Assembly: GCF_030028105.1 (NCBI RefSeq)
Contig: NC_092376.1
Location: 77,920,935 to 77,984,934, forward strand
DNA from: Mobula birostris
Lineage: Eukaryota
Reading direction: 5' to 3'
DNA length: 64,000 nucleotides
The position numbers and the translations under genes were made by a program. The notes beneath the pieces were generated by a model. It searched no databases. It worked only from the letters and a program-made list of their open reading frames with translations, and was not told where the DNA came from. This document shows positions 10,813 through 43,300 of the stretch, piece after piece; position 1 is the stretch's first letter, and every line of letters begins with the position of its first letter.

Positions 10813-11189
10813 TCTTCAATCATATAGTTATGATTGTCAAAAAATACACAGTGACAAAAAAAATATATAGTCCAAGTCCCTGAGTGGCACAACTGCAGAT
10901 TGATAGTAAATTGTCCTTGTCCAGCTTGTTCTTCCACTGAGTGAACACTGAGGGGCAGCACTGAGAGAACACTGGATGGCAGCATCGAGTGAACACCAGA
11001 GGGCAGCACCAATGGGAAGGGCCCTTCCGTCCCGTCAAACTCCTTCTGTGGACTCCCTGCTTACTCGACACTAACTGCAGCTTCAACTATCTTTTTATCA
11101 TCTGCAAGCTTGGCCCCACAGCCATGAATTCTGTCATCCAGATCAATGGCATAGAACATGCAGAGAAGCAGTCCCAACAAGTGAAACAC

Positions 11190-11742
11190 CACTACTCACT
11201 GGCAGTCAACTAGAGAAGGCCCCCTTTATTCCCATTCTAAACCTCCTGCCAGTCAGCCAATCTTCCATCCATGCTAGTAATATCATGGGCTCTTATCTTG
11301 ATTGGCAGCTTCATGTGCGGCATCTTGTCAAAGGTCTTCTGAAGATCCAAGCAAACAACATCCGCTATCTTGCCTAGATTCCAGAATCTAGTGATTCTTG
11401 AAAGATCATTACTAATGCCTTCACTACCTATTCATCTATCTCTTTCAAACCCCTAGAGGGTAGTCCATCTGTTCCAGATGTGTTATTTACTCTCAGACCT
11501 TTCAGCTTCCCATACACCTTTTCCGTAGTAACAGTGACTACACTCACTTCTGGCTCCTGACATGCTTCAATTTCTGGCAAACTGCTGGTGTCTTCCAAAG
11601 TGAAGAGTGACAAAAAATACTTACTGAATTTGTCCACATTTCTTTGTCCCCCATTACTATCTCTCCAGTGTCATTTTCCAGTGGTCTAATATCCACTTTT
11701 GCTTCTCTTTTTCTGTTTATATATCTGAAAAAAATTTGGTAT
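11190..11742 (-). mobile_element. CR1 LINE fragment, left half of the ERV integration target
   Basis: YFLSLFTLED..KLKGLRV..SGTDGL (11428-11637). Joins seamlessly to 19073-19540 once the ERV is removed (..AAAATTTG GTAT CCTCTTTTATATTA..). Confidence 0.85.
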
Positions 11743-11760
11743 TGGCGTCACGAACAGGAT
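11743..11760 (+). promoter_or_regulatory. Primer binding site, tRNA-Ser(CGA) type
   Basis: TGGCGTCACGAACAGGAT is complementary to the 3' end ATCCTGTTCGTGACG-CCA of a vertebrate tRNA-Ser(CGA) (recalled, not searched). Confidence 0.8.
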
Positions 11761-12075
11761 CGGATAGAGACCCGCGAGGAGGGGAACGGCAGACTGGGAC
11801 GCTTCCCGGTCCCTCGGGGACCCTCACGAGGCTAACAGAATTAAGGGTGCACCCAAAGAAAAAAGTGAGCGCTTTTTGCGATAATTCGGACTAAGAATTC
11901 TGCTGGTTTTGGGGGTCTTGGGGACTCAGAAATGTGAAGCAACTGCCGAATGGTCTCTCCGATCCAAAGAATCTGGCAGAATCGGGGATAAAAGGAGGCT
12001 CAGAGGATTAATCAAGAGCACGGCAGTGGGGGTAAGTACAAGTTAAGTAAGAAAATTCCACGTGGTGTTGGTAAG

Positions 12076-12240
12076 TCCCTGTGGATACCGCTTCGCACGA
12101 AACGAAGGTCTGAACAGGCAGGGAAGGAGAATTAAAAATCCTCGTGAATACCGCCTTAAGAAGTGTAAGGGTCTGCATAGGCGAGGTGTAAAACGTTCTG
12201 TGGATACCGCCCTAAGTAGGGGTCTGCACGGGCAGAACGT
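12076..12240 (+). promoter_or_regulatory. Three tandem structured RNA motifs in the ERV leader (candidate packaging or export element)
   Basis: Core TGRATACCGC-[hairpin]-GGTCTGMA-YRGG enclosed by different but complementary outer stems in three copies. Confidence 0.6.
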
Positions 12241-12396
12241 AGTAAGAGACAAAGATAGTTTGATAGAGAATTCAGACGCTGGTGAGATAAACCATAAGGC
12301 TAGGCATAGAAATAGAGTTAGAAAAATAGTACTATTAAATAGGCAAGTAGTGAGATTCTAAAAATACCATAATAGAAAAAGGAAAAAGAGAGCAAC

Positions 12397-14170
12397 ATGA
12401 CAGAGAAAGGAACAGCAGTAGAAATATTGAGCAGAAAATTCCCGGTGTGTCAAGGTAAGATCGTGGAAATTTCAGAAAAATGGGAAAAAAGAACTAAAGA
12501 ACTGGTCACGAAATGGCCAAGAGAAGGAACGTTTGATGTAAGCTTATGTGAGGAAATGGAAGCGCTAATTAAAAATCACAAACCCAAAGATAAATCTAAG
12601 AAAAGAAAAGGAAAAGCATAACAGGGAGCCGGCTTCGGCTCTATACCCAGACCTGAAAGACGTAGAAAAACCTTCTCCCTCTTACGAGAGAAAAACCCTT
12701 AAGCAGTGTCCGATGATAACAGGAAGAGTGGATCTAAATGGAGAAATTATAGTCTGGGATACCGAGGAGGAAAGAAAGAATCACGAAAAGGAGCAGGAGA
12801 AAAGGGAAATAGAAGAAGAGATCAAAGGGTTACAGGAATTAAAAGCGAAAAGAGATGAAGAGAAATCTTTGTTACATGGACACGGAGCTGAGCAGGCTAA
12901 AGCAGAAGGTAACTTGTCGGGTGGGCAAGAGTTAAGTAGCGAAAGAGAGGGTGCCGGAGAATGTAGGGAGAGGATAGGAGACAGGAGCCTTGAAGGGGAA
13001 AAAGAGAGAGTGAAAAGGCAGATATTAGAAACAGAGGGAGAGATTAGGGAATTACAGCGGAGACTGAATTTCCAACGAGAGTGTGAGGATTTCGCATGGA
13101 CCAAAGCAAATGCTAGCTCAAGGCAGAAAGAAAGAACTCCCCGAGGAGGCCAAGGGAGAAAGGAAACCCCGGAAAGAATCATGTGGCAGCCAGTGAAAAC
13201 GTGCTCAGAAACAGATGGGGAGTCAGGCAAGGAGGAGAGTCAGGAGATGTGGGAAAGGAAAGGAAGAATGATGCCGTTGTTAGTAAAAGGATTGGGACAA
13301 GTACAGTATATTCCTTGGGGATCCCAGGACCTGGAAGGGCTGAAAAACACCCTGCCCAGCCTACATTAGGGTGCAGGGAAATGGATTAGGGCCTTTGAGG
13401 AAGAAACCACGGGACGAATGTTGGCTATGGGAGATTTGAAGGCGCTGCGGATAAGGCTGATGGGAACCTCCGGACTGCGAGAGCTGATGGAAGCGGCTGG
13501 CATACAGAATGCGGACAGCACACTGATTGACGGGGCCAGATTTGACACGGTGAGGCAGAGGGTATGGGGGGCCCTCAGGGAGCTCTATCCACCCAAAATG
13601 GACCCCAAAGCCATGAAAAGGGATCCACTGGGAGACACTGAAAATCCAGTAGCCTACATAGAAAATCAGTTGAAAACGTGGAGACTGGAAATTGAACGAG
13701 GTGGAAGGCAGCCCGTTTCTGACCTGGATGTTCCGGAGTGCTGTTTTGGATGCGATGCCTTCCCAAGTTAAGTCTAAACTTGAGGAAGTGGCCGGACTGA
13801 TGTCAATGACCCCTCAGGAATTCAGGGACCACGTAGCCCATACGGTCGAAAAATATCGAAAAGATAAACGAAAGTTGACTGAGCAGCAAGAAGCAAAGAA
13901 AGCTGATACAAATGCAGCTTGGAGAACTTAAAAAGAAGGAAAAAGAAAAAGGCAAGAAGATGCAGCCGGCAATGACCGATTTAAGCACAGCCGTTGAAAT
14001 GAATGAAATGCCATTATGTGGAGGGACCGGTCCGGAAAAACCCCATGCCAATAATAAACGTCTTTGGGGGAGCATTTCCAACAAATGCCCTATCAGGGAC
14101 AGAATAAATTTAAACAGCAGCCCAGACAGGACTGGAAATCCCAAGGAAAGGGGCAGAGAGATAACAGCTA
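12397..14170 (+). pseudogene. gag: ERV gag, broken by stops and frameshifts; no NC zinc knuckle seen
   Basis: MTEKGTAVEIL..KWPREGTFD matrix-like start, E/K-rich coiled coil, capsid-like YIPWGSQDL..LPSLH*GAGKWIRAFEE; ORFs 12397, 12713, 13418, 13692, 13912. Confidence 0.8.
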
Positions 14171-16762
14171 GATAGGTTACCATCTATTCTGTGGTCACAA
14201 CATGACATGGATGTAGGGAAAATAAGAACAGCTAGTCCGGTAGAAATAAAGCTGAACAAGGGAGTAGTTCCACCCAGGAGACCACAATATCCCCTGAAAC
14301 CAGAGGCAGTAGAGGGAATAGCGCCAACGATACAGGGGCTACTGGAGGCAGGAGTACTAAGGACAGACAGCCCATGTAATACCCCACTGTTACCTGTCCT
14401 TAAAGCGGGTAAATCTAAATGGAGACTGGTACGTGACTTGCGAGCGGTGAATGAGGTAATGGAGGACTGGCCAGCGGTAGTTCCCAACCCACACACGCTC
14501 TTGACTAATGTTCCACCAGAGGCAGACTATTTTTCGGTGATTGATTTGTGTTCGGCTTTTTTCAGCGTTCCCCTGGCAGATCAGTGTCAGTACCTATTTG
14601 TATTTACATACAGAAACAACCAGTATACCTACACTAGAACGCCTCAAGGATTTAAACATTCACCACACGTATTTAATCAAGTGTTAAAGGCGGACCTAGA
14701 GGGCATATCGTTGAAAAGAACATTGATACAGTATGTGGATGATTTGTTGATTTGCTCCGAAAGTGAGGGACAGTGTGAACAGGATACCATAACCCTTTTA
14801 GAGAGACTGGCGCATGGAGGGCATAAGGTATCTAGAAAGAAGCTGTAATTTTGCAAGCAACAGGTGGAATACCTAGGTAGAGTGATATCCAAGGGAGTGA
14901 AGGCGACAGCGCCGGATCAAATTGAGGCTATAACTAAAGCTCCCAAGCCCCAGACAGTGAGACAGATGATGACGTTTCTGGGACTGACAGGATATAGTTC
15001 AGATTGGATTGGGGAATATGCTGAAATTGTAACGCCACTAAGGAAAATAATGAAGGAAGCAGGACATACAAGCTTGGGGAGTAATCTACAGTGTGGAAAC
15101 AGAGAGGTTTTAAAAAGAGCAATGGAGATCCCATACAGCACTGTCAGCAGATTTTAGATCTAATAAAAGCGCTGATGAAACCTAAAGCACTGGCTATAGT
15201 AAAATGACAGGCACATAAAAAAGGAAATGATGCAGTAACAAAGGGAAATCAAGCTGCAGATGAAGCAGCCAGGAAAGCGTCTGGGTGTACATCCGCTGTT
15301 ATTGCACCCCAGGTAAGTCTAGAGCCGGAACCTATGGTAGAGGACCTAATTGAAATACAGGGAAAGGCAACTTTGGCAGAACAAACACTGTGGAGACGAA
15401 GGGGGCGCCAAGCAAATCCCAGAAGGCCTATGGACCATGGAAGATGGCCTACTGGTAGCTCCCACCCCTTTACTGACTATCCTGATCTCAGAAGCACATG
15501 GGATGGATCATTGTGCAAGGGGGGAAGTAATAAGGAAAATAAAAAAGGATGGATTTTGGTCGCCTTATTTACAGGCTTCAGTAGACCATGTGTTGTCACA
15601 GTGTGAGGTATGTGTGTAGAATAATAATCGGAAAGGAATTACAACCCCAATAGGTCATATACCCGTACCTGAAGGGCCATTTAAACACCTAGTGATTGAC
15701 TATGTAGACATGATAAAAACAGTAAGAGGGAAAAGATACATGTTGGTGGTAATCGACAGATTCAGCAGATGGGTAGAGGCAGTACCCTCGAAAGATCAAG
15801 GGGCAGGAACAGTGGTGAAATTCCTGACAAACGAAGTGATCCCAAGGTTTGGGATACCGACAGAAATTAGCTGAGACAATGGTTCAGCTTTCATCCAAAA
15901 AGTGGTCAAGTTAGTTCTGCGAGCACTGAGAATAAAGCAGAGATTCGGATGTGTGTATCACCCTCAGTCGCAGGGTATGGTGGAAAGAATTAACGGGACC
16001 TTAAAAGCCAAACTAAACAAAATCTGTGCAGATACTAAACTCAACTGGGTCGATGCACTACCATTAGCATTAATGAGTTACCGCACGCAGACTAATCGGA
16101 TGACGTGTCTAACACCGCATGAAATGCTAACCAGAAGGCCCATGCCAGTGCCCCAGTGGAGAGGACCATATAAAGGGCCTAGTTTGGAACAACTGGAAAT
16201 GGAATTAAAACAATGCATGCGGCAATTAACTATGATACATAAGTCTATTTATGTACAGGAAAAACAGAAAGAGCCAGAGATTGATGAAGGGGAAGGACCA
16301 ATCAAGCCAGGCGATCAGGTCTACGTGCGAGCGTTTCAAAGAAAGTGGAACGAACCCAGAAGGGAAGGGCCCTTTACAGTAACCAAAGCTTCACCCACCA
16401 CAGTTCAAGTGGAAGGACGCTCCACCTGGTATCATCTCAATCACTGCATTAGAGCAGTCTCACAGGTACAGTCAGGTGGGCCACCCGAGGTAAGTGATGA
16501 AGAGGAACAAACAGTAGGGGACAGGCAAGAGCAACAAGAAACTGATACTGAACCGCAGGAGCTTGACCAAGTAATAAGGGAAATTTTTGGTCCTGAGGAC
16601 AGGCCAGAAGACCCTAAGGATGGGGTTATGGATGGTAGTACTCTTTCAGATAATGGGGATGACTTGGGGGCGACCAGTCTTGCCCCTCGGGGTGATACAC
16701 TCAGATACTCTTGTGCAGACTTGGAGACCATTAATTTGGCAGATGTGGCATGGGACTGTTAG
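14171..16762 (+). pseudogene. pol: ERV pol (RT, partial RNase H, integrase); protease and RT connection region deleted
   Basis: SPCNTPLLPV, WRLVRDLRAVN, IDLCSAFFSVP, PQGFKHSP, QYVDDLL; RNase H tail (GHKKGND..GNQAADEAA); IN H-H-C-C, IDYVDM, DNGSAF, YHPQSQGMVERINGTLK and GPY/F-like WNEPRREGPF. Confidence 0.92.
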
Positions 16763-18254
16763 GATCCCACCAAACCTGAGAGAAAGGAGTAAGAGGAGCA
16801 CAATGGGTTACCTCCGTACCATGGTACCAGAATATATGGTACCAATGGGCAAATTATACAGCAGGGATGATGAAGAGACAGAATTGTTAACTATGCTCAA
16901 GGGCAAGTCCGGTGCAATATGTAGTCCCCATGCCTTATAACTCCTCCAACTGCACGCAATGGCGAAAGGAGCGGAGGGGGCAGTGTGCGCAGCAGTGTCC
17001 AAGTATAGTGAAGACCTGCAGTATGGGAATTTGTAGCGGGATAGATCCTTGTTATCGGAAATGTATTGATAACACACCAATGTGCCCTTATTGGTGTATG
17101 TTATACCAGGCTTCCTCACAGTATGATCAAAACAAGCTTGCCTCTAACTGTAATTACAGCAGACCGTGGGCTATGAATAAAAGAAGCCAGACACCCACTT
17201 TGGGAAAGCTCAAAGTGCAGGAGCATTTGAGTTATGAATATTTCACACGGACGGGTGATCTCTTGGTTGGACATTTCAGTGGTAACTGTGCTAAGACTTG
17301 GGATGTAACCCCAGGCCAGAGATACAAGACAGGTACCCCTCCACCCGATGGTGCACTGGATGCCCAGACCATCCCGTTAGCAGATACCTAGTGGCTTTGT
17401 GGGAAGGAGGGAGGTCTGAGATCCACGCTCCCCCTCGGTTGGACAAGTACATGTACATGAGTTATGCTGATTCAAGAAGTTGTAGTATCTCCTGAAGTAC
17501 AATTTGACGCTCTGAAGCAGCAGATACTGCGACGAAGGAAGAGAAAATATGAACCTGATCCAACAATCCAAATCGACAGTATAGGACAGCCGAGAGGTAT
17601 ACCTAATGAATTTAAGGCAAGAAATGAGATTGCTGCGGGCTGGGAGGCACTTACACCTATAATAGGGGTTAGTAAAAATGTTGAATGGATAAATTATATA
17701 TATATTATAATCAACAGAGATTCATCAACTACACTGATGATGCACTAGAGGCCTTGGGGCAGCAGCTAGATGCAACCAGTAGAGTGGCGTGGCAGAATAG
17801 GCAGGTACTAGACTGGCTATTGGCAGAGAAAGGAGGGGTTTGTGTAACATTTGGGGAAAAGTGCTGTACTTCTATACCGAATAACACTAGTCCGGAGGAA
17901 TCGTTTACCAGAGCAATGAATAAACTGAAAAATCTAAGAAAGGAAGTTAAACAAAATGCAGGGTTTGGACACCAGTTCTTTGACTGGTTAGATAGTAAAC
18001 TAGGAGGATGGGGAGCATGGCTGACCAAGACTGCAGTAACCATTGGTATTGTATTGCTAAGCTGTGCGGTCATTCTGTGCTGTTTTCTTCTATGCCTCAA
18101 GTCGCTTGTAGTGCGTGCTGCAATGAAACGGTTTCCGATGCTCCTGGAAATTGTTGGGTCGAGCCCTACGGAGAAAGAAGCACCGATGATGTATTCATAC
18201 AGTCTACGAGACATGCAAGACGAACAAGAGAGAGATGAGATATGTGGGGATTAG
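16620..18254 (+). pseudogene. env: ERV env (gamma-type TM, EnvR(b)/fish-ERV-like), frameshifted
   Basis: Signal-like MGLWMVVLFQIMGMTWG, furin site RRRKR, IDSIGQPRGIPNEFKARNEIAAG, WINYIYYNQQRFINYT, ISD-like QNRQVLDWLLAEKGGVC, CX6CC (CVTFGEKCC) and a TM helix. Confidence 0.9.
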
Positions 18255-18474
18255 GCTGCTCCTGAGTCTTTTTCCCTGTCTCAGATACGAAGGGATGGGT
18301 TTTTGGCTCAGCGGCCTAGGGAGCTAGGGAGAGAACACTTTGAGTCTTAAGCGCAGAAAACTATAGTTTAACCCAAATTTGGGAGTAAATGCGTGGCTTT
18401 ATTTGAGCTTTTGTGCATAGACTCTCAGTCCTCTCTCTCTCTGTATGAGACCCTGTGGGTCTCAAAGGGCAGAT

Positions 18475-19072
18475 TATATTGGAAAATGTAAACGCATACA
18501 TTGTATTTTCTATGTATTACAGTATTTACAATATTTACTCAACAGTATTTCAGTATTCACTCAAATGCACACATTATATTTTCTATATTTACTATGTAAC
18601 CACTGCTAGCTGAATAGAGGGTATTTATTATGTAGCCATGACTTTTGACCTAATCACTATTAATTCATGAAGAGAACTAGAATGAAATCAAGTAGGAAGA
18701 TAACAGTGGCGAGTAAGGTAATGAAATATGTGGCAGTATGTCAAAACAAGACCAATTAAGAAATAACTATGGTTAGGAATGAGGGGACACCTGGTCTAAA
18801 AAGTAAACTAGGACATAATTAAATTGGGGAGTAAAACAATAGTGGAAGGTCGAGAGCGGATGTATTGATGATATGTGATCACAGGCCGTCTGGATATGAT
18901 AATGTAGCTAAGATAGGAGATTGCTATAAAAAATGCTGTGTACAAGCCTCGATGGGCAGTCAGCTACTAGCTTTCTGATTGTCTCAGCTTTGATTTGCAA
19001 ATTAAAGTTTAAAACGTCTTGAAGGATTTTCTGCGTCTCCTTGTTGTTTGTAAGAAACGAGAAACCACGACA
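18475..19072 (+). repeat. ERV 3' LTR (about 600 bp)
   Basis: Follows the degenerate PPT AAAGGGCAGA (18464-18473). CCAAT at about 18752, TATAAA at 18925, ATTAAA at 19001, terminal CA at 19071-19072, then the TSD. The 5' boundary is approximate. Confidence 0.85.
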
Positions 19073-19540
19073 GTATCCTCTTTTATATTATTGACTAGCT
19101 TACCTTCATATTTCATCTTTGCTCTCCTTATTGCCTTTTGTGTTTCCTTTTGTTGGTTTCTAAACGCTTTGTAATCCTCTAGCTTCCTACTAATTTTGCC
19201 ACAGTATGCCCTCACTTTTGTTTTTATGCTGGCTTTGATTTCCCTTGTCAGTCATGGTTGCCTCATCTTCCCTTTAGAGTACTATTTCTTCTTTGGGATG
19301 AATCTATCAGCTTTCCAGATTGCTCCCAGAAACCCCAGCCATTGCTGCTCTGCCATCTTCCATACTAGTGTCCCCTTCCAATCAACTTTGGCCGGCTCCT
19401 CTCTCAAGCCTCTGTAATTCCCTTTACTCCACTGTAGTACTGATACATCAGATTTTAGCTTCTATGTCTCAAACTGTAGGGTGAATTCTATCATATTATG
19501 ATTCCTGCCTCCTAAGAGTTCCCTCACCTTAAGTTCCCTT
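19073..19540 (-). mobile_element. CR1 LINE fragment, right half of the ERV target
   Basis: AIRRAKMKYEGKLVNNIKEDT (19009-19215 -) continues the CR1 broken at 11742. Confidence 0.85.
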
Positions 19541-20396: not shown

Positions 20397-21525
20397 CAGG
20401 TGCTGGAAATCCAAAGCAACACACACAAAAATGCTGAAGGAACTCAAAAGGTCAAGCAGCATTTATGGAATTGAGAAAACAGTAGAACTTTGGCCAAGAC
20501 CCTTCTGCAGGACTGGAAAGGAAAGGGAAAGGGAAGGGTGATAGCTGGAAGGTGATAGGTGAAGCCAGGTGGGTGGAAAAGGTAAAGGGCTGGAGAGAAA
20601 GAAATGTGATCGGAGATGAGAGTGAACTGTAGGAGAAAAGGAAAGGGAAGGAGGAGGGGACCCAGGGGAGGTGAATAGCAGGTGAGAAGAGGTAAGAGGC
20701 CAGGGTGGGGTATAGAAGAAGAGGGGAGGGGGAGGGAAAATAAATTACTGGAAGGACTCCGACCGTGCAGCCCCGGCAGCCGGGCCTGATGGCGCAGATG
20801 GCAAGCACGGCGGCAGGAGTGGCGTGGGCTCAGCAGTGGGCCACGTCATGGGGAGCGCACCGACCGGCGCCTTCAGTGGTGGAAGTGGCTCGGAGCCAGC
20901 CAGGGCAGATGTCACCTACCAGAAGCCTCCAGTGGCAGCCCCACCAGCCCAACTTCATTCCCAAGACTTCAGACCCTGCCAGTACAAAATGAAACAGTTT
21001 CTGGAGTGTGCCCAGAACCAGCATGACCTAACCCTCTGTGACGGTTTCAATGAGGTGCTGATGCAATGTTGCTCTGCACACAGTGTATATTGAAGTGGAA
21101 GTTGCCTGACGAAGGATTGTGAAGATTCCTGTTGTGTCCCATTTAATTTTAGTGATGAGGCTACAGAGACCAGAATAATGTATGATTGTTAAATGTGAAT
21201 AAAATGTTTAAAAAAAAAATTACTGGAAGGAGAAATTGATATTCATGCCATCGGGTTGGAGGCTACCCAGATGGAATATAAGGTGTTGTTCCTCCATCCT
21301 GAGGGTGGCCTCATCTTGGCACAATAGGAGGCCATGTACTGACATGTTGGAATGGGAACGGGAATTAATATTAAAATGTTTGGCCACCGAGAAGTTCCAC
21401 CTTTAATGGATGGAGTGGAGGTGCTCGACGAAGCATTCCCCAATGTCTGACAGTTCTCACCAATGTAGAGGAGGCTGCATCGGGAGCACCGGACACAACA
21501 GACAGCTCCAACAGGTTTGCAGGTG
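20397..21525 (-). mobile_element. Penelope-like element 3' part (GIY-YIG endonuclease and pLTR), interrupted by a retrocopy
   Basis: 21243-21542(-) AVCCVRCSRCSLLYIGE; homologous to 50488-50814; terminal TGCTGGAAATCCAAAGCAACACACAC motif. Confidence 0.85.
20757..21219 (+). pseudogene. CHCHD2: 5'-truncated processed pseudogene of the CHCHD2/CHCHD10 family
   Basis: PRQPGLMAQMASTAAGVA / GSAVGHVMGSAPTGAFSGG..EPARADVTYQ..PCQYKMKQFLECAQNQHDLTLCDGFNEVLMQC (twin CX9C). Intronless, frameshift at about 20824, AATAAA at 21198, poly(A) at 21210-21219, TSD AAATTACTGGAAGGA at 20742-20756 and 21217-21231. Paralog assignment uncertain. Confidence 0.92.
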
Positions 21526-28972: not shown

Positions 28973-30964
28973 CTTTCAATCGATCTCTGACCTGACACCA
29001 CTCTCTCCCCTTGAGTTATAAAGGTTATATTTATATTATTTAGTTTGTGTAGTCTGAAATGAAAAAGTGTTCATAGGGAAGGCGCTGTTCACTTTACTTC
29101 TGTACAGAAGCATTCAGCACCTTGGAATTTACCACTAAATGCAGCAACTTACTGGCTGGCACTATACAATTTCCAAACTGTAAACAAATAGAAGTAGATA
29201 CTGGACCATATTTATTTAGATACATCATTTGCTCAGACAGGTTCGTAACTGAGTCATTCATTTACATTCAATTCCATCAGCCTATTTGTAAGCTAGTCAA
29301 AAGTGTCTTTACATTTTAAACCATCAACCATTCACCATAAATCTTTCTCCCTTGCTGTTGCAGCATCAATTTGATACATATTTTCCTAGGCTATTACATA
29401 TAGTTCAGTAATGTATGACACACAGGAAGAATATTAACAAAATATTTTTACTTCTCAAATGTATTTAAATACATTAATGTCACAATAATTTTCAATTCAA
29501 AATCGTCTAAGGTGATAAACTCTTATCCTTTTACGTTTTCACAGAACTACTGATGTCCTTGATTTATCTTTGCAGGCACTTCCATGCTAAAATTCAATAC
29601 CACAATATTATGGGAGTAATGCAGTGCTTAAGGGGGAATGATAGAAAAATATCCAGCAATTACTGGATGTGTCTAGATGGGAATCATTCTGATGGAAAAA
29701 TATGATTTTGTTGACCCACTTGTTTTCCAATAGTACTGAATTCCCCGGTGTACTTTCTCAAGCGTCACTACAATATCACAACAAATTTCAATATAAGAGC
29801 TCATGAATTTTCAGGATTCAGATTTAGTTTCAAATGAGTTCATAAAATCATGTTGAGTTTTCAATTACCATATATCTTGGCATTGCTTTCTATCTATGAC
29901 TTTTTATGACTATTTTAGTGGAAGGAGAACAAGCTCTCAATCCTGGTTAAGACCCTACATGAATTGCCAAATACATCTGCACAGGCAAACAGTTACAGAG
30001 CTATAACTTCTTGAGAAAACATAAGACAGCATTGCCTGGCGGTTAAAATGACCACAGCCCACTTGTCATATCAAAGGAGACCAGCAACAATAACCCAATT
30101 TGTTGCTATCAAATATATTGGACAGATAATTGAAGCATTATTTGTCATGTCTAATACAAACATTTTCAAACTCCTATAACTAGTTGGCAGGCAGAAAAAC
30201 ACTACTACATAATTGCATTTCCCAAATAACAGGAATCATTATTCAAACTCAGGCAGTCACTAGACATGGAAATGTATTGCTTCCTGTAGGTAGCTGGTCA
30301 GTGATCAATATCATGCCATGCAGATCAATGGTGCTTCACAATCAACTCCTAAAACTCATTAATTAGAGTGCAATCACTTGTATAGTAAAGAAGATAAATA
30401 TTTAATCTTTGCTTATCATTACATCCGTTCATCCCAAAGCATTTTGCAGCTTTACACCAATTTTTGCCCTTGAGGATTCAGTCACAGGTTTAGTCATTTC
30501 AGAGCATACTCTGAAAGGCAGTTGCTGCTGCATTTAGTTTCTGTAGCCCCATCTTATTGATTTACTGACTGCAATACCTGCTGCTTGACTTTGATATCAC
30601 TCTTTCTTTCCTCCATTGATAATCTTTCTCTTGGGTGTTTACCCTTCAAAGATTTATGTTGATCCTGTAGCGGTGTGCTACACATAGTGCTAGAATAACC
30701 ACACGGAGTCAGTGAGTTAGAGTTGCGATGAAAGAGATTTATTCAAACTTTGCGGCCTGCTTTAAAGCCTTCCTGTTCCCGACCTCCCTGGGCGGGACTG
30801 CTGTGGGAAATGCATATTCCCAGACCCTTTCTGCGCGTGGGATATTCCCCCTGCTGGTGAAGATGGCCTGGCGCCCTTTTTGGGGCCGGCCCTCTGCCTG
30901 CGCGCGCTGTTGTGAGCCGGTTCGTATGTGCCAGAAAGTGGGTTGCCACATAACCCCACCCCCC

Positions 30965-33900
30965 AGAACCGGCGATACCTCCCCCAATGTCCACAGTCTG
31001 AATTGGCCTCTGTTTGGGAGGTCGGCCCCTGCGCCATGGTGCCTGAGCCTGGACCGGCTGTGCCAAGTCCACATGGGCCAGTTTGAGTCGGTCCACCGTG
31101 AAAACCTCCTCTCTCCCCCCAACGTCCAGCACGAACGTGGATCCATTGCTCCTGATCACCTTAAACGGCCCCTCGTAGGGCCGCTGTAGCGGTGCCCGGT
31201 GTCCGCCCCGTCGTACAAAAAGAAACTTACAGCTCTGCAGGTACGCAGGTCGGGCTCTGTCCGTGCTGTGAAGTGGGTATGGGGGCCAGGTTACCGAGCC
31301 TCTCCCGTGGTCTGTCCAGGACTGCTGTGGGTTCTTCCTCTTGCCCCCTTGGGGCTTGTATGAACTCTTCTGGGACTATCAGGGGTGTGCCATACACCAA
31401 CTCGGCCGACAAGGTGTGCAGATCCTCTTTGGGCGCCATGCGGATTCTGAGCAGGACCCAGGGAAGTTCGTCCACCCAGTTAGGCCCTTCTAGGTGGGCC
31501 ATGAGAGTCGATTTCAGGTGACGGTGCAAACGCTCCATTAGTCCGTTCGACTGTGGGTGGTAGGCGGTTGTGTGGTGTAGCTGTGTTCCTAAAAGGTTGG
31601 CCATAGCCGACCACAGGCTGGAGGTGAACTGGGCGCCCCTGTCGGAGGTAATGTGGGCCGGTACCCCGAAGCGGGCTACTCAGGTTGCAATCAGTGCTCG
31701 GGCACAGGATTCGGAGGTGGTGTCGGTGAACGGGACAGCCTCTGGCCATCTGGTGAACCGGTCTATTGTAGTTAGGAGGTACCGCGCTCCTTGCGATATC
31801 TACATGAATGTGGTCAAACCTCCGGCGGGTGGATTCGAACTGCTGCGTTGGAGCCTTGGTGTGCCGCTGCACCTTGGCCGTTTGGCACTGCATGCACGTT
31901 TTGGCCCATTCACTGACCTGTTTACGAAGTCCATGCCACACGAACCTGTTGGCGACCAGCCGGACGGTTGTCCTGATGGAGGGGTGCGCTAAGTTGTGAA
32001 TGGACTCGAAAACCCGCCGGCACTAGGCTGCTGGGACGACGGGGCGGGGTTGGCCAGTAGCTATGTCACATAGTAGGGTCCTCTCATCTGGGCTCACGGG
32101 GAGGTCTTGCAGCTGCAAACCGGAGACTGCAGTCCTGTAACTGGGGATCTCAGCGTCTGCCTGCTGTGCCTCTGCCAGCGCTGCATCGTCCACCCCCTGG
32201 GACAGGGCCTGTATGGTAGGTCTGGATAGTGCATCTGCCATGATGTTGTCCTTTCCAGAGACATGCTGGATGTCCGTCATGTACTCGGAGATGTAGGACA
32301 GATGTCGCTGCTAGCGGGACGACCAGAGGTCAGACGCCTTCATGAACGCAAAAGTAAGCGGTTTGTGTTCTGTGAACGCGGTGAAGGGCCTACCTTCTAA
32401 GAAGTACCTGAAATGCCGGATTGCCAGGTATAGTGCCAATAGCTCCCGGTCGAAAGCACTGTATTCGAGTTCTGGTGGTCGTAGGTGTTTGCTGAAGAAC
32501 GCCAGGGGTTGCCAGCGACCCTCAATGAGTTGTTCCAGCACTCCACCGACCGCTGTGTTGGATGCGTCCACCGTGAGGGCAGTAGGAACGTCCGTTCTGG
32601 AGTGCACTAGCATCGCAGCATTTGCCAAGGCTTCTTTGGTTTTAACGAAAGCGGCTGCGGCCTCTTCGTCCCAGGTAATGTCCTTGCCCTTATCCGGCAT
32701 CAGAGTGAACAGGGGTCGCATGGTTCGGGCTGCTGAGGGGAGGAAACGGTGGTAGAAATTCACCATACCCACGAATTCCTGCAGGCCTTTGATTGTGTTG
32801 GGTCGGGGGAAGTGGCGGACCATGTCTACCTTGGTGGGCAGAGGGGTTGCCCCGTCTTTAGTAATCCTGTGGCCCAGGAAGTCGATGGTGTCGAGTCCGA
32901 ACTGGCATTTGGCTGGGTTGATCGTAAGGCCGAATTCGCTCAGGCGGGAGTAGAGCTGGCGGAGGTGGGACAGATGCTCCTGCCGACTACTGCTTGTTAT
33001 GAGGATGTCGTCCAAATAGATGAATGCAAAGTCCAGGTCGCGTCCCACCGCATCCATTAGCCGCTGGAAAGTCTGTGCGACATTCTTTAGACCAAACGGC
33101 ATTCGGAGGAATTCGAAAAGTCCGAACGGGGTGATAAGTGCTGTTTTGAGGATGTCGTCTGGATGTACAGGGATTTGATGGCATCTCCGGACGAGGTCTA
33201 CCTTGGAAAAGATCCTTGCGCCATGTAGGTTTGCTGCGAAGTCTTGAATGTGCGGCACAGGGTAGCGGTCTGGCGTTGTAGCCTCGTTCAGTCTGTGGTA
33301 GTCACCGCATGGTCTCCAGCCGCCCATTGCCTTGGGCACCATGTGAAGGGGGGAGGCCCATGGGCTGTTGGACTGTCGTATGATCCCCAATTCCTCCATC
33401 TTCTTGAACCCCTCCTTCGCCAGTCGGAGCTTGTCCGGGGGAAGCCTTCGAGCACGGGCGTGGAGGGGTGGTCCCTGGGTCGGGATGTGGTGCTGTGCTC
33501 CGTGTCTGGGCATGGCTGCCATGAACTGCGGTGTCAGTACTGATGGGAAATCCGCCAGGACCCTGGTGAATTCGTCGTCGGACAGCGTGATGGAGTCCAG
33601 GTGTGGGGCTGGCAACTGTGCTTCACCCAGGGAGAACGTTTGAAAAGTCTTGGCGTGGACTAATCGCTTCCCTTGCAAGTCGACCAGCAGGCTGTGGGCT
33701 CGTAGAAAATCCACCCCCAGGAGTGGTTGGGCCACGGCGGCCAGTGTGAAGTCCCATGTGAACCGGCTGGAGCTGAACTGTAGCTGTACCGTGCGGGTGC
33801 CGTAGGTTCGTATTGTGCTGCCATTTGCGGCCCTCAGGGTGAGTCCCGGTTCTCTGTTGCGGGTGTCGTAACTCGTTGGAGGTAAAACGCTGATCTCCGC

Positions 33901-33984
33901 TCCAGTGTCAACCAAAATGCGGTGTCCCGACTGCTTGTCCCAGACGTACAGGAGGCTGTCCTGATGGCCAGCCACCGTAGCCAT
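30965..33984 (-). pseudogene. pol: Gypsy pol (PR-RT-RH-IN) with stops and frameshifts
   Basis: [62 protein letters not shown]. Confidence 0.93.
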
Positions 33985-34688
33985 CAGCAGCGGCTGGCCC
34001 TGGGGTTTCCCGGGAATTTGCAGGGCGGCCTACAGCATCAGGCCTCTGTGCCCCACCGCTGGTGGTAGAAGCACCATTGTTCGTTGGGCTCCTCACTCCC
34101 GTCGCCGGGTTTTGTAGGCTCTGCTGCCGGGCCTGGTCTGGTCTGTCGTTGGGTACGCGGCTTGGTGATCTGTGCGACGGATGCCCCTCTCTCTTTCCTG
34201 GCATTCCACAGCACATCTGCTTGGGCCACCACCTCCCGGGGGTCGCTGAAACCTGCGTCGGACAGCAGCAGGCATATGTCCTCGGGCAGTTGCTCTAGGA
34301 ACGTCTGCTCGAACATGAGGCAGGGTTTGTGTCCTTCAGCCAGGGCCAGCATTTCGTTCATTAATGCTGACGGTGGCCTGTCTCCCAAACCATCCAGGTG
34401 CATTAAGTGGCGTGCTCGTTCACACCGTGAGAGTCCAAAAGTCCTTATGAGCAGGGCTTTGAATGCTGTGTACTTGCCGTCCTCCGGGGGTGACTGTATA
34501 AACTCCTCAACTTGTGCAGCTGTCTCCTGGTCGAGGGAGCTCAGCACGTAGTAGTAGCGAGTGGACTCCGAGGTTATCTGCCGAATGTGGAATTGAGCTT
34601 CTGCTTGTTCGAACCATAAATGGGGTCGCAGCGTCCAGAAGCTTGGCAGTTTTAATGAAACTGTGTGAACAGATGCCGCGTCAGTCAT
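33983..34688 (-). pseudogene. gag: Gypsy gag (premature stop at 34038)
   Basis: VSLKLPSFW..PHLWFEQAEAQF..LGDRPPSALM..WCFYHQRWG; GGGAAAC slippery site at 34005-34011. Confidence 0.85.
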
Positions 34689-36717
34689 CTCTGGTCTAAA
34701 TATCATTTGGGCCGTCGGGGTCACCAATTGTAGTGGTGTGCTACACACAGCGCTAGAATAACCACACGGAGTCGGTGAGATAGAGTTGCGATGAAAGAAA
34801 TTTATTCAAACTTCGCGGCCTGCTTCAAAGCCTTCCCGTTCCCGCCCTCCCTGGGCGGGACTGCTGTGGGGAATGCATATTCCCAGACCCTTTCCACGCG
34901 CGGGATTTTCCCCCTGCTGGTGAAGATGGCCTGGCGCCCTTTTTGGGGCCGGCCCTCTGCCTGCACGCGCTGTTGTGAGCTGGTTCGTGTGTGCTAGAAA
35001 GTGGGTCGCCACAATCCTCCTTATGAAACATTGCAACTGAGAGGCTGATTTGTGTCAAAACACCTTGATTGTACCTTGAGGTATTAATAAAGCATCTTAA
35101 ATGAAGTGAGGTCAGAGAGATCTTAGGTTTATAGCAGAAAATCCAAAATCTAAAGCATTTTTTTGCTTAGGTCATGGGACTAACAGCAGCATAATTCAAG
35201 TTGGAAATACCCAGGCATCCAGATTACAGTAACACCAATACCTCAGAATTGCAGGACAGGGAAAAACATCGAGAAAAATGGGATCTTCAATCATTTTTAT
35301 TAATAGATGAGCATTTTAAATTTGTGTCAATGCTCAACGGTGAACCATTGTAGATTAACAATCATGAAGAGAGGCGAGTATAAACTGCAAAATATAACAC
35401 TGCTGGTAGAGTATTAGATAACAAGTTTGTAGGGAGTAGAATGAGGTGTGTCATTCAAGAGTGCAGTTTAGTTGAACAAGGGTTTCAACAGCAATAGTAG
35501 AGATGAAAATGAGTAATGTTAGTGATGAATTGATAAGTCAGTTAGGGGGAATGATGGAAATGTAAATGAAACTAATGGTAGCCATGCCTATTTCATGCAC
35601 AGAATCAAGCGAAACATACACTGGTGTTGTACAAGAGATATTCTAGATACTACAGCTTCCCAGGTCTTTCTGAATCCAGCCCACCTTTCATGTCTCTAAA
35701 CTTAAATCACTGCTCTGTAGTCCTTTAGTCCCTACTCCTTATCCTCAACCTGTTTATACTGGCTGCAGATTGTGTGACTTCTGACGAATTAAGGGACATT
35801 TCCAGTACTTAGTCGATTGGGAGGGGTGTGGTCCAGAGGAGAGGAGTTGGGTTCCAGTCCAGGATATTTTGGATCCTGATCTGATTACACTTTGATTGTC
35901 TTCTCCCCGAATGCCCTAAGCTGCCAGAGTTGGCTTCGGCAGGTGGGGGGGGGGGGCGGTGTCTGTCACAACTAGGGGAGAAAAGATGTTTTTCAGTTAG
36001 TCAGTTCGTATGTGGACTGTATTTTCTCAGTGTCACCTTGTGGGTCTGCAGTATTCCTTATATTTTTATGTCTAAGCTCCTAGATCTTTTATGCCTATTT
36101 GTTCTTCTTTGGACTAGCTCTCCACTTTGTTTTGCGAGTGTCTCCTTTGGTATCGTGAGAATTGTTGAGCTCTCTTAGTATTTATCACCTTTATTTAACT
36201 TGGGGTAATTAAATTAGCATGGGATTTTCAATGTCTTGCATTGTAGTTGTTGCCTTGGGGTTATTACTTCGTCTGGACACTGGGGCTGTCAGATGGTCCT
36301 AAATTCTAATGTGCTCCAGGGTGTGTTTTGGTGGGGTGGGGGGATTCTTGCCAATCCTTCCTTGCTTGGTTGTTGTGGATCCTTGTCTGGTGAAACTCTG
36401 AATATTGTGAGTGATTTCAGTTCTTCAAGATTCTGTATAGTTTGCCTGAGTTCTTGTTTGTTTTCCTGGTTAATTTCTGTAAGAAGTCTTTTGTCTTGTT
36501 TGAATTGCCGAAGTCTCTGTGATTCCTGCACTTTAGTTCACTAGTGACGCTGACATTAAAGTATTGATGTTGTGGACAGAAGCTAATTAAAAGTTCCATG
36601 TACTCATTTTACAGCAAATTATAAAAGTCTGAGCTATTCTGAAAAAAGCAGAAAGAAACAGATTGTTTCTTATTTTAGGACTGTCATTGCTACCTGCAAA
36701 ACAATTAGAACTACTGA

Positions 36718-37399: not shown

Positions 37400-38211
37400 A
37401 AAAAATAATGGGAAGCTTTTAAGAGCCAACAGAAGGAAGCTAACAAAACAAGGAGAAAAAAGATGAAAATGAAGGTAAGCTAGTCTATAATATAGAAAAG
37501 AGGATACCAAAATTTTTTTCAGATATATAAAGAGTAAAAGAGTGGATATTGCACTGCTGGAAAATGATGCTGGAGAGATAGCAATGAGAATAAAGAAATG
37601 TTGAGCAAACTTAATAAGAATATTGCATCAATTTTCACTTTGAAAGTATGCCAGAAATTACAGAGCGTTAGAGGGCAGAAGTGAGTGTAGTTGCTCTTAC
37701 TAAGGAGAAGGTGCTTGGCAAGCTGAAAGGTTTGAAGGTAGATAAGTCACCTAGACCAGATGTACCACACCCCAGGATTCTAAAAGAAGTAGCTGAAGAG
37801 ATTGCGGAGTTAGTTGTAGTGCTCCCTCAAGAATCACGAGAATCTGGAAAGGTTCTGGAGAACTGGAAGGTTATAAATATCACTTCACTATTTAAGAAGA
37901 AGTGAGGCAAAAGACAGGAAATTATAGGCCTGACTTCAGTGCTTGGGATGATGTTGGAATGCATTATTAAAGATGAAGTTTTGGAAGTAGTTGGAGGCAA
38001 ATAATAACATGTTGAAGTCAGCATAGTTTCCCTAAGGGAAAATCATGCTTGACAAATCTGTTGAAATTCTTTGAGGAAAAAGCAGGCAGGATAGATAATG
38101 GATAGCTGGTTGATGTCGTTCACTTGGATTTTCAGAAGGCCTTTGACATGATACCACATATGAGGCTGCTAAATAGGATGAGAGCTCATGGTATTACATG
38201 AAAAATACTAG
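37400..38211 (+). mobile_element. CR1 LINE fragment, target of the second Gypsy element; resumes at 45297-45430
   Basis: KLKGLKVDKSPRPD..HPRILKE, LDFQKAFD; continues after the Gypsy as (I)LA*TKDWLTGRKQRVGI..GPLLF. Confidence 0.85.
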
Positions 38212-38955
38212 TGTACGGGGTTTTTTTTGTATGTTAAATTTAAAATGGCTTCTTTGTTATGTTATACTTGGGAATGCTTCTTTGTTATGTTAAATGCTGA
38301 GAAAGTCTCTAGCTAGACATTAGCTTGGGTTAATACAGATAGCAGGGTGCTATTAGCCAATGGGTGTTCATGTTATCGTTTTTTCGGGTGGTAATGCTGT
38401 CTCATATGTCTGGAGAAGGGGTTTTTGGCAGGGAGTCAGAGGAGAGACGGGGAGGACGGTGGAGAGACGGGGAGTCGGAGGAGAGATGAGGAGTTGGAGG
38501 AGAGACGGGGAGGACGGTGGACGTGCGAAAGGCTCCAGTTGATCAATCCAGGTGGTCCTGAGCCATGAGTCGACAGGATCCGGGTGGTCGTCAGGAATTC
38601 ATTGAGCTCCAACGGTTGTGCACAAAGAACTTGGACTTTGATAAGTCTGGCGCCTTTTTTTTCATTACTTCCTTTTCTGTATCGAATTTATATGAATTTC
38701 ATAGACTTAGTAATATCTATAAAGTGTACTTGGTGAAACATACTCTGTGTGCTGGCTGATGATTGGTGTTTGGGATTGATTCGGGCGGCAGTGGTACAGC
38801 AACCGACCCAGCAGGAAGCGTTGAGGCAGGTGCTGGGCTGGATTTCCCCTAGACATATATGAGCCAATATAACTGACCGTTACAAGTGGGGGCTACCGTC
38901 CTGGATTTGGATTTTCGGTAAAGCTGTAACAGTCGTCGCGTTGAGTAGTGCGAAG

Positions 38956-40240
38956 ATGGATCGAGATAAGATTGTAAGTTGGTGTGAATTAGAGAATGTA
39001 CCAGTGAATCAGGTGTGCGTGCAGAGTGGGGTGGATTTCCGCATTTCAGCAGAGGCACTAGCGCGAAGGTTGAGTTTGATTAAAGGTATCGGGCAGGTAG
39101 AACTTATAGCTAGAAGGTGTGGGAAAGAACTGGAGTCCAGCTGGATGTTGATTTGGACAGGTGCCGACGTCATGACGTTGTAACTACCAGCGACAGTCCA
39201 CGTCCAGGGGGAGGCAGGGTTGTGGGGTCTCCACACCCTCCCGGAGGACGAAAGTGAGGAGGTGCTGGAGGAGGAGCTAGATGAAGCCCCAGGGGAGGTG
39301 CCAGTAGCCAGGGGTGGAGGGTTGGAGTGGGAAGGCTTGATCAGGCCCTGTCCCCCAGTTAGGGGTGAGACCTCCAAATTAGCCGATGCCATTACCTCCC
39401 TGGTGAGAAGGGTTGAGGGGCCCCACCTGAAGTTGAGAATTTTCTCAGGAGCCATGCCCACCCCAGGAGGGGAGGATGACTATGAGGTATGAATTGAGAA
39501 TACATCCCAGTTGTTAGAAGCGTGGTCAGTTTCAGATGAGGAAAAGAGACAGCGATTGGTGGAAAGTTTAAGGGGCCAGTGTAGTCCGCGAGTTGAGAGC
39601 GGAACGCCCTTCGGCTTCCCTGTCGGAGTGTTTGGACTGTCAGGAGATCCCTAGCGACTTTTAGCGGAGTTTCAACAAATGGGGCAGGGAAGAGGGGAAG
39701 AGGTCTCAGAATACATTTTCCAGCTGGAAGGAAAGCTTACTGGGCTGCGGCGCCGAGGGGTAGTGAAGGCGGACGAAGTGGCGAAGTTGAGGATGAGCCA
39801 GGTACGTAGCGGTTCCCGGGAGGATGACAGGGTGGCTTGGAGTATCCGGCAGTCATATAAGAGGAGCCCCCGCCCCTCCATCATTCGGGCAGCTGATTAG
39901 AGAGGTGCGGGAGGAGGAGAGTGCTTCGGGCCGAACGGGGGCTCGGAACCCCGGGGACGGTCTTCAGCGGTTCAGGAGGTGGTAGCTGGGTTGAGGATGG
40001 ATGGGGGTGGTACCCCTTTCGGGGGGCGTCCCGGGAGGAGAGAGGCGGCGGGTAGCGTGTGCTAAAACTGTGGGAGAGAGGGGCATTTCCGGCGGGAATG
40101 TGAGTGGCCCGGGGGTGTGCTACAGCTGTGGGGAAGCGGGTCACTTGCGGAGGGATTGTGAGAGACGAGATGCTCCGAGGAGGGAGGGCCCCCGGGCCAC
40201 TAAGAAGGGAGAGGTGTCGGGAAACTCAGGAGAGTCTCAG
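38956..40240 (+). pseudogene. gag: Gypsy gag, PNMA/Ma-antigen-like, with CCHC knuckle
   Basis: MDRDKIVSWCE.. N-domain, LRIFSG..PTPGGEDDYEV, EKRQRLVESLRG, QGRGEEVSEYIFQLE, CYSCGEAGHLRRDC; GGGAAAC slippery site at 40219-40225. Confidence 0.85.
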
Positions 40241-40308
40241 GAGGAACACGTTCCCAGAAAGCAGCCAGGGAACCCCCGAAAGCACAAAGCCTTATTCCGG
40301 ATGGACTG

Positions 40309-43300
40309 GTGGGACCCCGTTCCAGCGTGTCCCTACGGATAGAGGGAGTCTTTGCAAAAGCCATCCTTGACACAGGATCGCAGGTTACCTTACTGTACCG
40401 GTCGTTCTACAACAAATATCTGAAGCATTTGCCAGTAACCCCGTTCAATGCACTGGAGATTTGGGGCACAAGTGACGGTGATTACCTGTACGATGGGTAC
40501 CTGTCAGTGAGATTGGAATTCTCGGAGGGAAATGTGGGAGTGTCGGAAGCCCTTGAGACGTTGGTGTTGGTTTGTCCGGACCCGGTGGAAACCGGTGGCG
40601 CTGCCCTGCTAGTGGGGACTAACTCCCCTCTGGTGCGACGGCTCTTGGGAGCCTGTAAGAAGGCAGCGGGGGAGAACTTTCTGGAGACCCTCTCGGTACA
40701 CCCAGTGTTTCGAGCGGTGTACGAAGGAGTGGGTGACCCCCAGGAGCTGGATCCTGAGTGCAAACGAGGGACGGTGTGGTGTACTCAGGCGAGGCCTAAG
40801 GTGATACGGCCAGGGGAGGTGGCATTAGTGATGGGGACCCCCAGATTCCCCGGAGTACTGGCGGGCGAGGCCCTGCTAGTAGACGCCCCAGACGACCTGG
40901 AAGGGGAGTCCCAGTTCCCGGCTGGGGCGCTGGTGAGACCTGAATTGCAGAGGCCCTCAGCTGTACAGGCACGGCAGATAGGGGTGATGGTAAGGAACAT
41001 AACGGAGAGGGAGATCACCTTTAAGCGCGGGATGCCGCTTGCGCATTTGTTCCCGGTTACAGTGATGTCTAGCGCTCCCATGAGACCCACTGGAGGAAAA
41101 CTATTGGAGAACGGGGGGCTGACCGAGGAGGCCTTTAATTTTAAAGACTCCCCTGTACCGCCGGAGTATAAGAGCAGGGTGGTGGAGAAGATGCTGAAGC
41201 TAGGGGATGTCTTTTCTCAGGGCGAGTTTGATGTGGGATGTTCCAAGAGCACTCGGCACACTATCCGGGTGACAAATGACACCCCGTTTAGAGAAAGGCC
41301 GCGGCGGTTGGCCCCAGCAGATGTGGAAGATGCACGGCAGTTGAAGGATGCAGGGATTATCGCGGAGTCCCGGAGCCCCTATGCGTCCCCCATAGTGGTG
41401 GAAAGGTAGGAACATGGGAAGGTACGCATGTGCGTGGACTACAGGGCTCTGAACCGGCGCACTGTTCCCGACCAATATACGGTCCCAAGGGTGGAAGACG
41501 CATTGGCCTGTTTGAGTGGGGCGCGGTGGTTTAGCGTATTGGATTTGCGGAGTGGGTATTACCAGATTCCGATGAGTGAGGCCGATAAAGAGAAGGCGGC
41601 CTTTATCTGCCCCCTGGGATTTTTCTAGTTCGAACGAATGCCCCAAGGCATATCGGGGGCCCCAGCCACCTTCCAGCGGCTCATGGAGAGGACAGAGGGG
41701 GATATGAACCTGCTGGAGGTATTGGTGTACCTGGACGACCTGATAGGGTTTGGATCTACGTTGGAGGAACATGAGGAGCGGCTGCTGAAGGTGCTGAGTC
41801 GGCTGAAGGAAGAAGGGTTAATACTTTCCCTGGATAAATGTCAGTTCTGTAAAACGTCGGTCAGCTATGTCGGGCACATAATCTCGCGAAATGGAGAGGC
41901 CACTGATCCGGCTAAGATAGCTGCAGTAACCACCTGGCCGAGACCCCAGAAGGTGAGCGCCTTACGCTCGTTTTGGGGGTTTTGCGGATATTACCGGCGA
42001 TTCGTGAAAGGATATGCGAAAATGAGTCACCCATTGAACCAGTTGTTGTGTGGTTATCCACCTGTGAGGAGGAAGAGGAAGGGAGACCGAGGGCCGGAGG
42101 AAGGAGGATATTTGAACCCGGGGGAGCCTTTTGGATCGAGGTGGGATGCTCAATGTGAAGAGGCGTTCCAATCTCTAAAAAGGGCGCCGACACAGGCCCC
42201 GGTGTTGGCTTTTGCTGATCCCCGGAAGCCGTATGTTCTACACACTGATGCCAGTAACGAGGGTCTGGGGGCTGCCCTGTACCAGGAACAGGGCAACGGA
42301 TTGAGGCCGGTGGAGTTTGTCAGCCGGAGCTTGTCGCCATCTGAGAGAAACTATCCCACTCACAAGCTGCAGTTCTTGGCGTTGAAATGGGCGGTGGTGG
42401 ACAAGTTGAGTGACTATCTATACAGGGCCCAGTTTGAGGTGAGAACTGACAACAACCCCCTCACTTATATCCTGACCTCGGCGAAGCTGGATGCTCCTGG
42501 GCACCGGTGGTTAGCGGCCTTGTCTGCCTATGAGTTCAGCCTGAAGTACTGGCCGGGGAGTCGGAACATCGATGCAGATGCCCTGTCTCGTCGGGCGCAC
42601 GACGAGTCGGGCACGGCTGAGGAGTAGAAGAGTGTCCCTGCCCCGGGAGTGAAGGCCATGTGTCAGGTTGGGAGCGACGGGGAAGCAGGAGCCCCGATGT
42701 GGCCGGTTCGGGCAATGGATCAAACGGGGGTTGACGATGACGCGCTACCCACTGTTAACTGTAATTTCACTGCTCTGAGGAACAGGCAGCTGCTGGAGTT
42801 GAGCACCCAGCAAGTGGGGGCGGGTCAGCGTGATGACCCGAGCATTGGCACTATCTGGTACGTGGTTAGCCAGGGTGATGTGGCCCAGGTGGAGAAGGCG
42901 AAGCACGCCTCCGTTCCCCTACTACTGAAGGAGTGGCCCCGGTTGAAGCTGAAGAACCACGTCTTGTACCGCGTCACGTCGCCCCCGGACCACCCCCGGC
43001 GCTGGCAGCTGGTCATGCCTGAGAAGTATCGGAAGACTGTGCTCCAGGCACTACATGATGATTCCAGGCACTTGGGGGTAGAAAAGACCCATGGATTACT
43101 CAATGACCGGTTTGACTGGCCCCGGATAAGGAGGGAGGTGGAAGAATACTGTAAGATCTGTAGTCGTTGCATCAGGAGGAAGACCTTGCCTGCGCAGGCG
43201 GCTCCGTTGTCCCAGTTGCAGAGTGCGGGACCCATGGACCTGGTGGGTATGGATTTCCTGTCTATTGATTCAGACACCAGCAGCACCGCCAATGTCTTGG

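Follow-up and report, generated by a model that had tools for sequence, protein, structure and literature searches.

A provirus that lacks its 5' long terminal repeat (LTR) was analyzed in the genome of Mobula birostris. This endogenous retrovirus (ERV) occupies positions 11739..19076 of a 64,000-nucleotide stretch of contig NC_092376.1 (positions 77,920,935 to 77,984,934, forward strand), referred to as the window. The provirus starts at its primer binding site (PBS), ends with its sole LTR and is flanked by a 4-bp target site duplication (TSD). Copies of this type recur in the family, and a comparison of their sequences shows that they are independent and suggests that they are likely integrase-made insertions with the PBS as their left end. 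Integrase probably used the CCA end of the PBS, as present in an unfinished reverse transcript, as the left attachment end.

At the left junction, GTAT (11739..11742) is followed directly by the PBS (TGGCGTCACGAACAGGAT, 18 nt, 11743..11760), the first base of which abuts the GTAT. At the right junction, the LTR ends with CA (19071..19072), and the second GTAT follows (19073..19076). No LTR-like DNA was found within the 1500 bases searched upstream of 11739. The complement of the PBS corresponds to the 3' terminus of a tRNA-Ser(CGA) gene in the genome, with CCA added. An earlier note on this DNA had described the same junctions, and they were confirmed in the assembled sequence. The LTR start had been placed at 18475 but is at 18477 (TATTGG), as set by the TSDs of all ten whole two-LTR copies of the family.

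The provirus interrupts a long interspersed nuclear element (LINE) on the minus strand, which we take to be a CR1 element because of motifs in its open reading frame 2 (ORF2); repeat homology and frame continuity are what was tested. The downstream half (CR1-like ORF2) is at 11151..11738 and matches other LINE copies in the window at 72-80%. The upstream half (endonuclease end and linker) is at 19077..19520, is also homologous to other LINE copies, and continues the same frame. The host LINE has another copy in the window, on the minus strand at 37400-37620, with the sequence ...TTTTG GTAT CCTC. Because this sister copy has a single GTAT, the duplication is real, as the earlier note had assumed. 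The LINE reading frame runs on across the insertion site. The note's further statement that the LINE halves rejoin without loss errs by a single base: just outside the TSD, a run of T in the left flank is shorter by one than in all four homologous LINE stretches (4/4).

Recurrence of the junction in the family

The family was surveyed at 149 places, with upstream DNA read for 110 and 17 upstream bases for 39 more. This census is partial: there were 187 first-look candidates, and one search had 132 matches, 32 of them unlisted, of which 17 were recovered. Sequence of the 5' LTR is kept at 143 of the 149 places, and the other six (~3%) are devoid of it except for at most 3 bases. These six places represent five independent events, each with a 4-bp duplication that was confirmed against empty homologues. 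Four of the five events start at the PBS position, while one keeps the first three bases of the LTR.

The first event is the window's copy (GTAT / PBS ... CA / GTAT). The second, at C1:34955937 on the minus strand (TATG / PBS ... CA / TATG), has only 1 nt of microhomology; among its 11 empty homologues, a single TATG is found in six, CATG in one and TGTG in two, and two are diverged. The third (C19:184905/233922) is present twice due to one inverted duplication and reads ATAT / PBS ... CA / AAAT, with one mismatch in the TSD; all five empty paralogues have a single 4-mer (ATAT in four, AAAT in one). The fourth (C38:28029505) reads TAGA / AGGC ... CA / TAGA. It starts at the PBS position with A as its first base, and its empty homologue has a single TAGA. 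In the fifth (C13:19058201), which reads GTGG / TAT-TGGCG ... CA / GTGG, the LTR's first three bases (TAT) are fused to the PBS at TGG; a single GTGG is present in the empty homologue. Reading other junctions in the manner of C13, as a TSD followed by the LTR bases TAT, was tried and rejected: at the window's locus, this needs TTGG after the 3' CA, where GTAT is present, and at C19 it would require ATGA in this position.

Independence was assessed in a 69-row leader/gag tree. The LTR-less state corresponds to five changes on this tree, at least four of which are forced, and a single origin was found in 0% of bootstrap trees. Two subfamilies contain scattered LTR-less copies, and a copy with two LTRs is the sister of the window's copy (96/86 support).

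At 17 places the 5' LTR aligns only partially; all 17 keep LTR sequence on the U5 side and were counted as LTR-bearing. The LTR start lies in the flank in four cases, and one LTR is split by an insertion. Two copies are truncated inside the LTR; their 3' end was reached, and neither has a TSD. Five represent one duplicated cluster with its 3' end outside the data, and five fall outside these classes. Roughly estimated from an approximate count of nine breakpoints and from 740 positions, the coincidence of four breakpoints at one base has a chance of 4e-10; allowing 20-fold for microhomology raises it to 6e-5. A degenerate PBS search that excluded A at -3 gave eight matches, none of them a new family copy. 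For the sister subfamily, a search of the same kind found nothing, which is a weak negative, as it missed the known C13 case.

The C19 copy has a second peculiarity. Its env region is joined to a GGG located 29 nt after the TATA box, so that the polypurine tract and U3 are absent. This join was found in two of 42 matches, both of them at C19, and in none of the other copies compared. In HIV-1 (human immunodeficiency virus type 1), aberrant first-strand transfer is recognizable by a junction at the three G with which R begins (PMC12657518). Because the C19 join, with R placed at the GGG by its presumed start, resembles this signature, it is likely that a U3 end never existed in this copy.

Alternative explanations and a possible mechanism

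Several observations weigh against the use of the PBS as an attachment end, and part of them favor a later deletion of the 5' LTR from a two-LTR provirus. The window's copy and the C19 copy each permit a 3-nt microhomology deletion (ATT) from a two-LTR ancestor. At the window's locus, ATT is shared between GTAT plus T and the spacer AAAT plus T, and taken alone this locus is compatible with a later deletion. At C13, the microhomology is TGG. Two of the four TSDs of copies that start at the PBS position end with TAT, the first bases of the LTR, compared to seven of 91 normal TSDs (P ~0.03, post hoc); a model with integrase acting at the PBS does not predict this mild excess. C38 starts with A rather than T, so that there is no evidence of a CA end in this copy. 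The C19 TSD has one mismatch, the mismatched copy (AAAT) being identical to the spacer, and the env/R join of C19 lies within a 12-of-13-nt homology, which could also guide a deletion at the DNA level. Finally, 1-LTR circles did not appear to be a source of integration in HIV-1 (PMC4372172).

Nevertheless, a later deletion is an unlikely origin of these copies. Microhomology does not exceed 1 nt at C1 and C38, and breakpoints at the exact LTR start and the exact PBS start would be needed in five separate lineages. The seven of 91 normal copies with a TAT-ending TSD have retained their LTR. Deletions do happen in this family, as the truncated copies illustrate, but the two random truncations that could be checked had lost the TSD. 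The earlier note had dismissed a later deletion by considering this locus alone, for which the argument is weak due to the 3-nt microhomology; it becomes strong only via the other loci.

We attribute an equally small probability to one-ended integration, in which integrase joins only the U5 end, and host repair joins the PBS end, or a chimeric TAT-TGG end, via microhomology. This type of integration has been described for Rous sarcoma virus with a poor end (as cited in PMC4422153 and PMC12657518), and unprocessed ends joined via microhomology could account for the TAT at two junctions and for the CA/AAAT at C19. However, the duplications of the aberrant integrants cited in PMC4422153 are long or irregular, whereas the duplication is exactly 4 bp in all five events, which points to a concerted staggered cut.

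A lineage which propagates in single-LTR form, equivalent to the earlier suggestion that the family routinely integrates in this form, would explain why the same architecture recurs, but is highly improbable: 143 of the 149 places have 5' LTR sequence, and the LTR-less copies form no clade. The leader/gag tree refutes such a lineage, unless recombination distorts it. The earlier note had proposed to count PBS-terminal copies against copies with a 5' LTR, and the resulting six of 149 (five events) speak for recurrence and not for a family-wide single-LTR mechanism. Just as improbable is an assembly collapse or mis-join at the window's locus, since the base-exact TSD matches the empty homologue and four further contigs carry copies of the same architecture whose TSDs and internal structures differ. 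Processed ERV pseudogenes made by LINEs start at R, end with U3-R plus poly(A) and have a long TSD; the window's provirus starts at the PBS, ends at the U5 CA, has no poly(A) and has a 4-bp TSD, and this candidate was rejected.

The proposed route by which integrase would use the PBS as left end starts from the known course of reverse transcription. After plus-strand transfer, the minus strand ends with CCA-3'OH at the PBS boundary in a double-stranded circle, and has to displace its way through the LTR. In this circle, the CCA-3'OH would sit beside the 5' end of its own strand. When displacement synthesis through the LTR stalls, the junction would already resemble a processed end. Cutting the plus strand once after CA would then yield a pair of ends that resemble normally processed ones, both having a recessed CA and a 5' overhang of 4 nt. 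If these were joined in concert, TSD-PBS-gag-pol-env-LTR-TSD would result. There may be a second route, in which the CCA end, once stalled, shifts to bases 4-6 of the LTR (TGG) and a chimeric end is made. A cut of this end at CA would yield PBS-exact copies, and a cut at the usual TA would yield the C13 copy.

That the structure arose at integration, with the CCA end of the PBS replacing an attachment end, had been proposed in the earlier note; it is corroborated by the recurrence in independent copies with TSDs of family length. The note had also assigned the intermediate to a stage before second-strand transfer. An unfinished product of reverse transcription is still the preferred substrate, but this stage is less likely because the PBS end is not double-stranded DNA at that time. 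The stage just after transfer, when the minus strand ends at the PBS, fits better.

In normal copies, U5 and PBS are separated by a 4-nt spacer, AAAT (AAAC in the sister subfamily, which has a different Ser PBS). The junction of U5, spacer and PBS is palindromic at 12 of 16 positions and includes two CA in inverted orientation with 4 nt between them. Counted from the cut toward the interior, five of six bases are the same in PBS and U5, and three of six in U5 and the true U3 end. With the TA...CA ends and the 4-nt spacer, the PBS end thus resembles U5 more closely than U3 does, and the TA-type U3 end together with the spacer may favor the PBS as left end in this family. It is quite possible, although we would not call it probable, that integrase does accept in vivo the nicked one-LTR circular intermediates of reverse transcription, which are commonly regarded as dead ends: the U5-spacer-PBS junction would mimic the junction of 2-LTR circles and, among internal copies that survive, prevail over the weak U3 end of TA type in ~3%, so that circle integration would be recorded as fossils in the germline. 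The LTR-less products themselves are predicted to be dead ends, because they have neither a 5' promoter nor R-U5.

The provirus, its family and other features of the window

All features of the provirus are on the plus strand. The PBS is followed by the leader (11761..12396), which over a length of 218 nt is 94-97% identical to that of 39 other copies. The gag region (12397..14155) contains stops and frameshifts; it was assigned by position, and a Pfam search of the provirus gave no match in it. Compared to longer copies, ~120 bp are gone at 12602-12615 and ~1.16 kb at 14153-14160, the latter probably comprising the end of gag and the protease. The pol remnant (14165..16762) has matches to RVT_1 (2e-23), rve (4.7e-8) and MLVIN_C (7.8e-12). 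It consists of a reverse transcriptase (RT) part (14165-14845, RVT_1) and of stop-containing integrase pieces (15350-16762, rve and MLVIN_C), and ~0.8 kb are gone at 15089-15093 relative to longer copies. The frameshifted env (16790..18254, start approximate) codes for a gamma-type transmembrane subunit with a CX6CC motif (TLV_coat, 1.3e-11, at 17685-18251).

The polypurine tract and a subsequent ATTA are at 18464..18476. A purine-rich run and TTA precede the 3' LTR in 10 of 10 copies (ATTA in nine), and ATTA likely corresponds to the four bases removed at the U3 end by presumed processing. The LTR (18477..19072) has the termini TA...CA, a TATA box at 18925 and an ATTAAA at 19001; R likely starts at 18954, based on the 29-nt distance to the TATA box. 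The two large deletions (~1.16 kb and ~0.8 kb) are shared with the two-LTR sister copy. As they affect the pol region, the lineage appears to have moved with proteins, including integrase, that were supplied in trans. The window's copy is young, because its terminal branch in the leader/gag tree is short (0.0063, median 0.025).

All ten whole two-LTR copies have a perfect 4-bp TSD and an LTR that starts with TATTGG and ends with CA; their two LTRs are 95-99.5% identical. By its sequence, the element is a class I (gamma/epsilon-like) ERV. It has a gammaretroviral-like RT, for which the nearest solved structure is that of murine leukemia virus (MLV; 156 bits, versus 87 for foamy virus), an MLV-type integrase C-terminal domain, a CX6CC transmembrane env, a 4-bp TSD and a tRNA PBS. 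The closest protein, with 90% identity, carries Mobula hypostoma in its name; others are mostly at 43-68% and are chiefly from fish. TG...CA are the usual, though not universal, LTR termini in class I ERVs, whereas TA...CA is found in 10 of 10 copies of this family. With class I ERVs of fish it shares an RT nearest to that of MLV, MLVIN_C, TLV_coat and the 4-bp TSD, but it differs by an LTR that starts with TA and not TG. Its 4-nt U5-PBS spacer differs from the 2-nt spacer of other PBS-Ser families in the same genome. In families with the same Ser(CGA) PBS and 2-nt spacers, none of 35 copies is LTR-less, a sample too small to establish an effect of the 4-nt spacer.

Some unusual arrangements were encountered in these families. 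A full three-LTR tandem of the provirus family (LTR-internal-LTR-internal-LTR) is present at G000:C12:27018285-27033960, and a partial or nested three-LTR form at C13:85035762-85046520. At G000:C32:33675404-33676090, a 3' LTR is directly followed by an inverted partial LTR. A PBS swap was found in L205 (G000:C6:48909800-48911200), which combines the LTR and leader of subfamily A with the PBS of the sister subfamily (Ser, other anticodon). The 2-nt-spacer families have 35 exact PBS matches, and 21 of these are on one contig (G000:C17), a possible case of repeat accumulation on a sex chromosome. On the same contig (L090/L091, G000:C17:30088077-30088189), the U5 end and PBS of a 2-nt-spacer family are repeated in tandem, 78 bp apart.

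Elsewhere in the window, a tandem array (54112-64000) has a period of 1179-1180 bp (sub-periods 753+426) with open frames of up to 1264 aa, which match Pfam FAM75 (SPATA31-like, 4e-51) and possibly represent a giant repeated coding exon. An intronless CHCH-domain frame (20716-21093, plus strand; 1.1e-5, below the curated cutoff) is likely a retrocopy, presumably of CHCHD2/10 type. Two LTR-bounded elements with RT/RNase H (30657-35013 and 38213-44900, the second also with integrase) are likely Gypsy-type, and an LTR piece of the second one is also found at 2-50.

Comparison with known systems

PBS-terminal integration was not reported in the literature searched, which largely lacked subscription journals, and this negative is no proof of absence. 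An ERV without a 5' LTR is not necessarily the decay product of a provirus with two, and such copies escape annotation and dating that require both LTRs. All tRNA-primed elements have the CCA end, and the same cryptic end may thus occur in other families.

The closest precedent is found in type 1 of the human T-cell leukemia virus (HTLV-1). In its type 2 defective proviruses (defined in PMC7877780), loss of the 5' LTR precedes integration, the 6-bp repeat is kept, and the join is at internal pol/env sequence (PMC6950816, describing Miyazaki 2007). Both systems have in common the absence of a 5' LTR, an intact 3' LTR end and a TSD of the length normal for the family; in HTLV-1, this was read as integrase using internal sequence. 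They differ in that the HTLV-1 cases have pol/env joins and are from somatic leukemic clones, while the Mobula copies are in the germline, have a nearly whole internal region and are joined at the PBS boundary (at the PBS or 3 bases before it in five of five events).

A second parallel is the 2-LTR circle, where integrase can open palindromic junctions to CA-3' ends capable of integrating (PMC1905944, PMC4372172). The Mobula junction is likewise a near-palindrome of the form CA-NNNN-TG. It is, however, the U5/PBS junction of a one-LTR intermediate, likely nicked on one strand, and its cleavage is deduced from fossils. This short and defined junction can be assayed in the form of oligonucleotides.

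In HIV-1, errors of RT result in asymmetric LTRs or in missing LTR parts (PMC12657518, PMC9278108), with mainly 3' LTR deletions being reported in PMC9278108. An alternative CA was proposed for cases where U3 is absent, but for lack of matched ends and sites the integration of such products could not be demonstrated (PMC12657518). The integration of circular retroviral DNA is an old and still argued question. In contrast to the aberrant strand-transfer products of HIV-1, the Mobula loci provide both ends and the TSD. For a product that occurs repeatedly and has its simplest origin in the circular intermediate, they offer ends that match, TSDs and empty sites.

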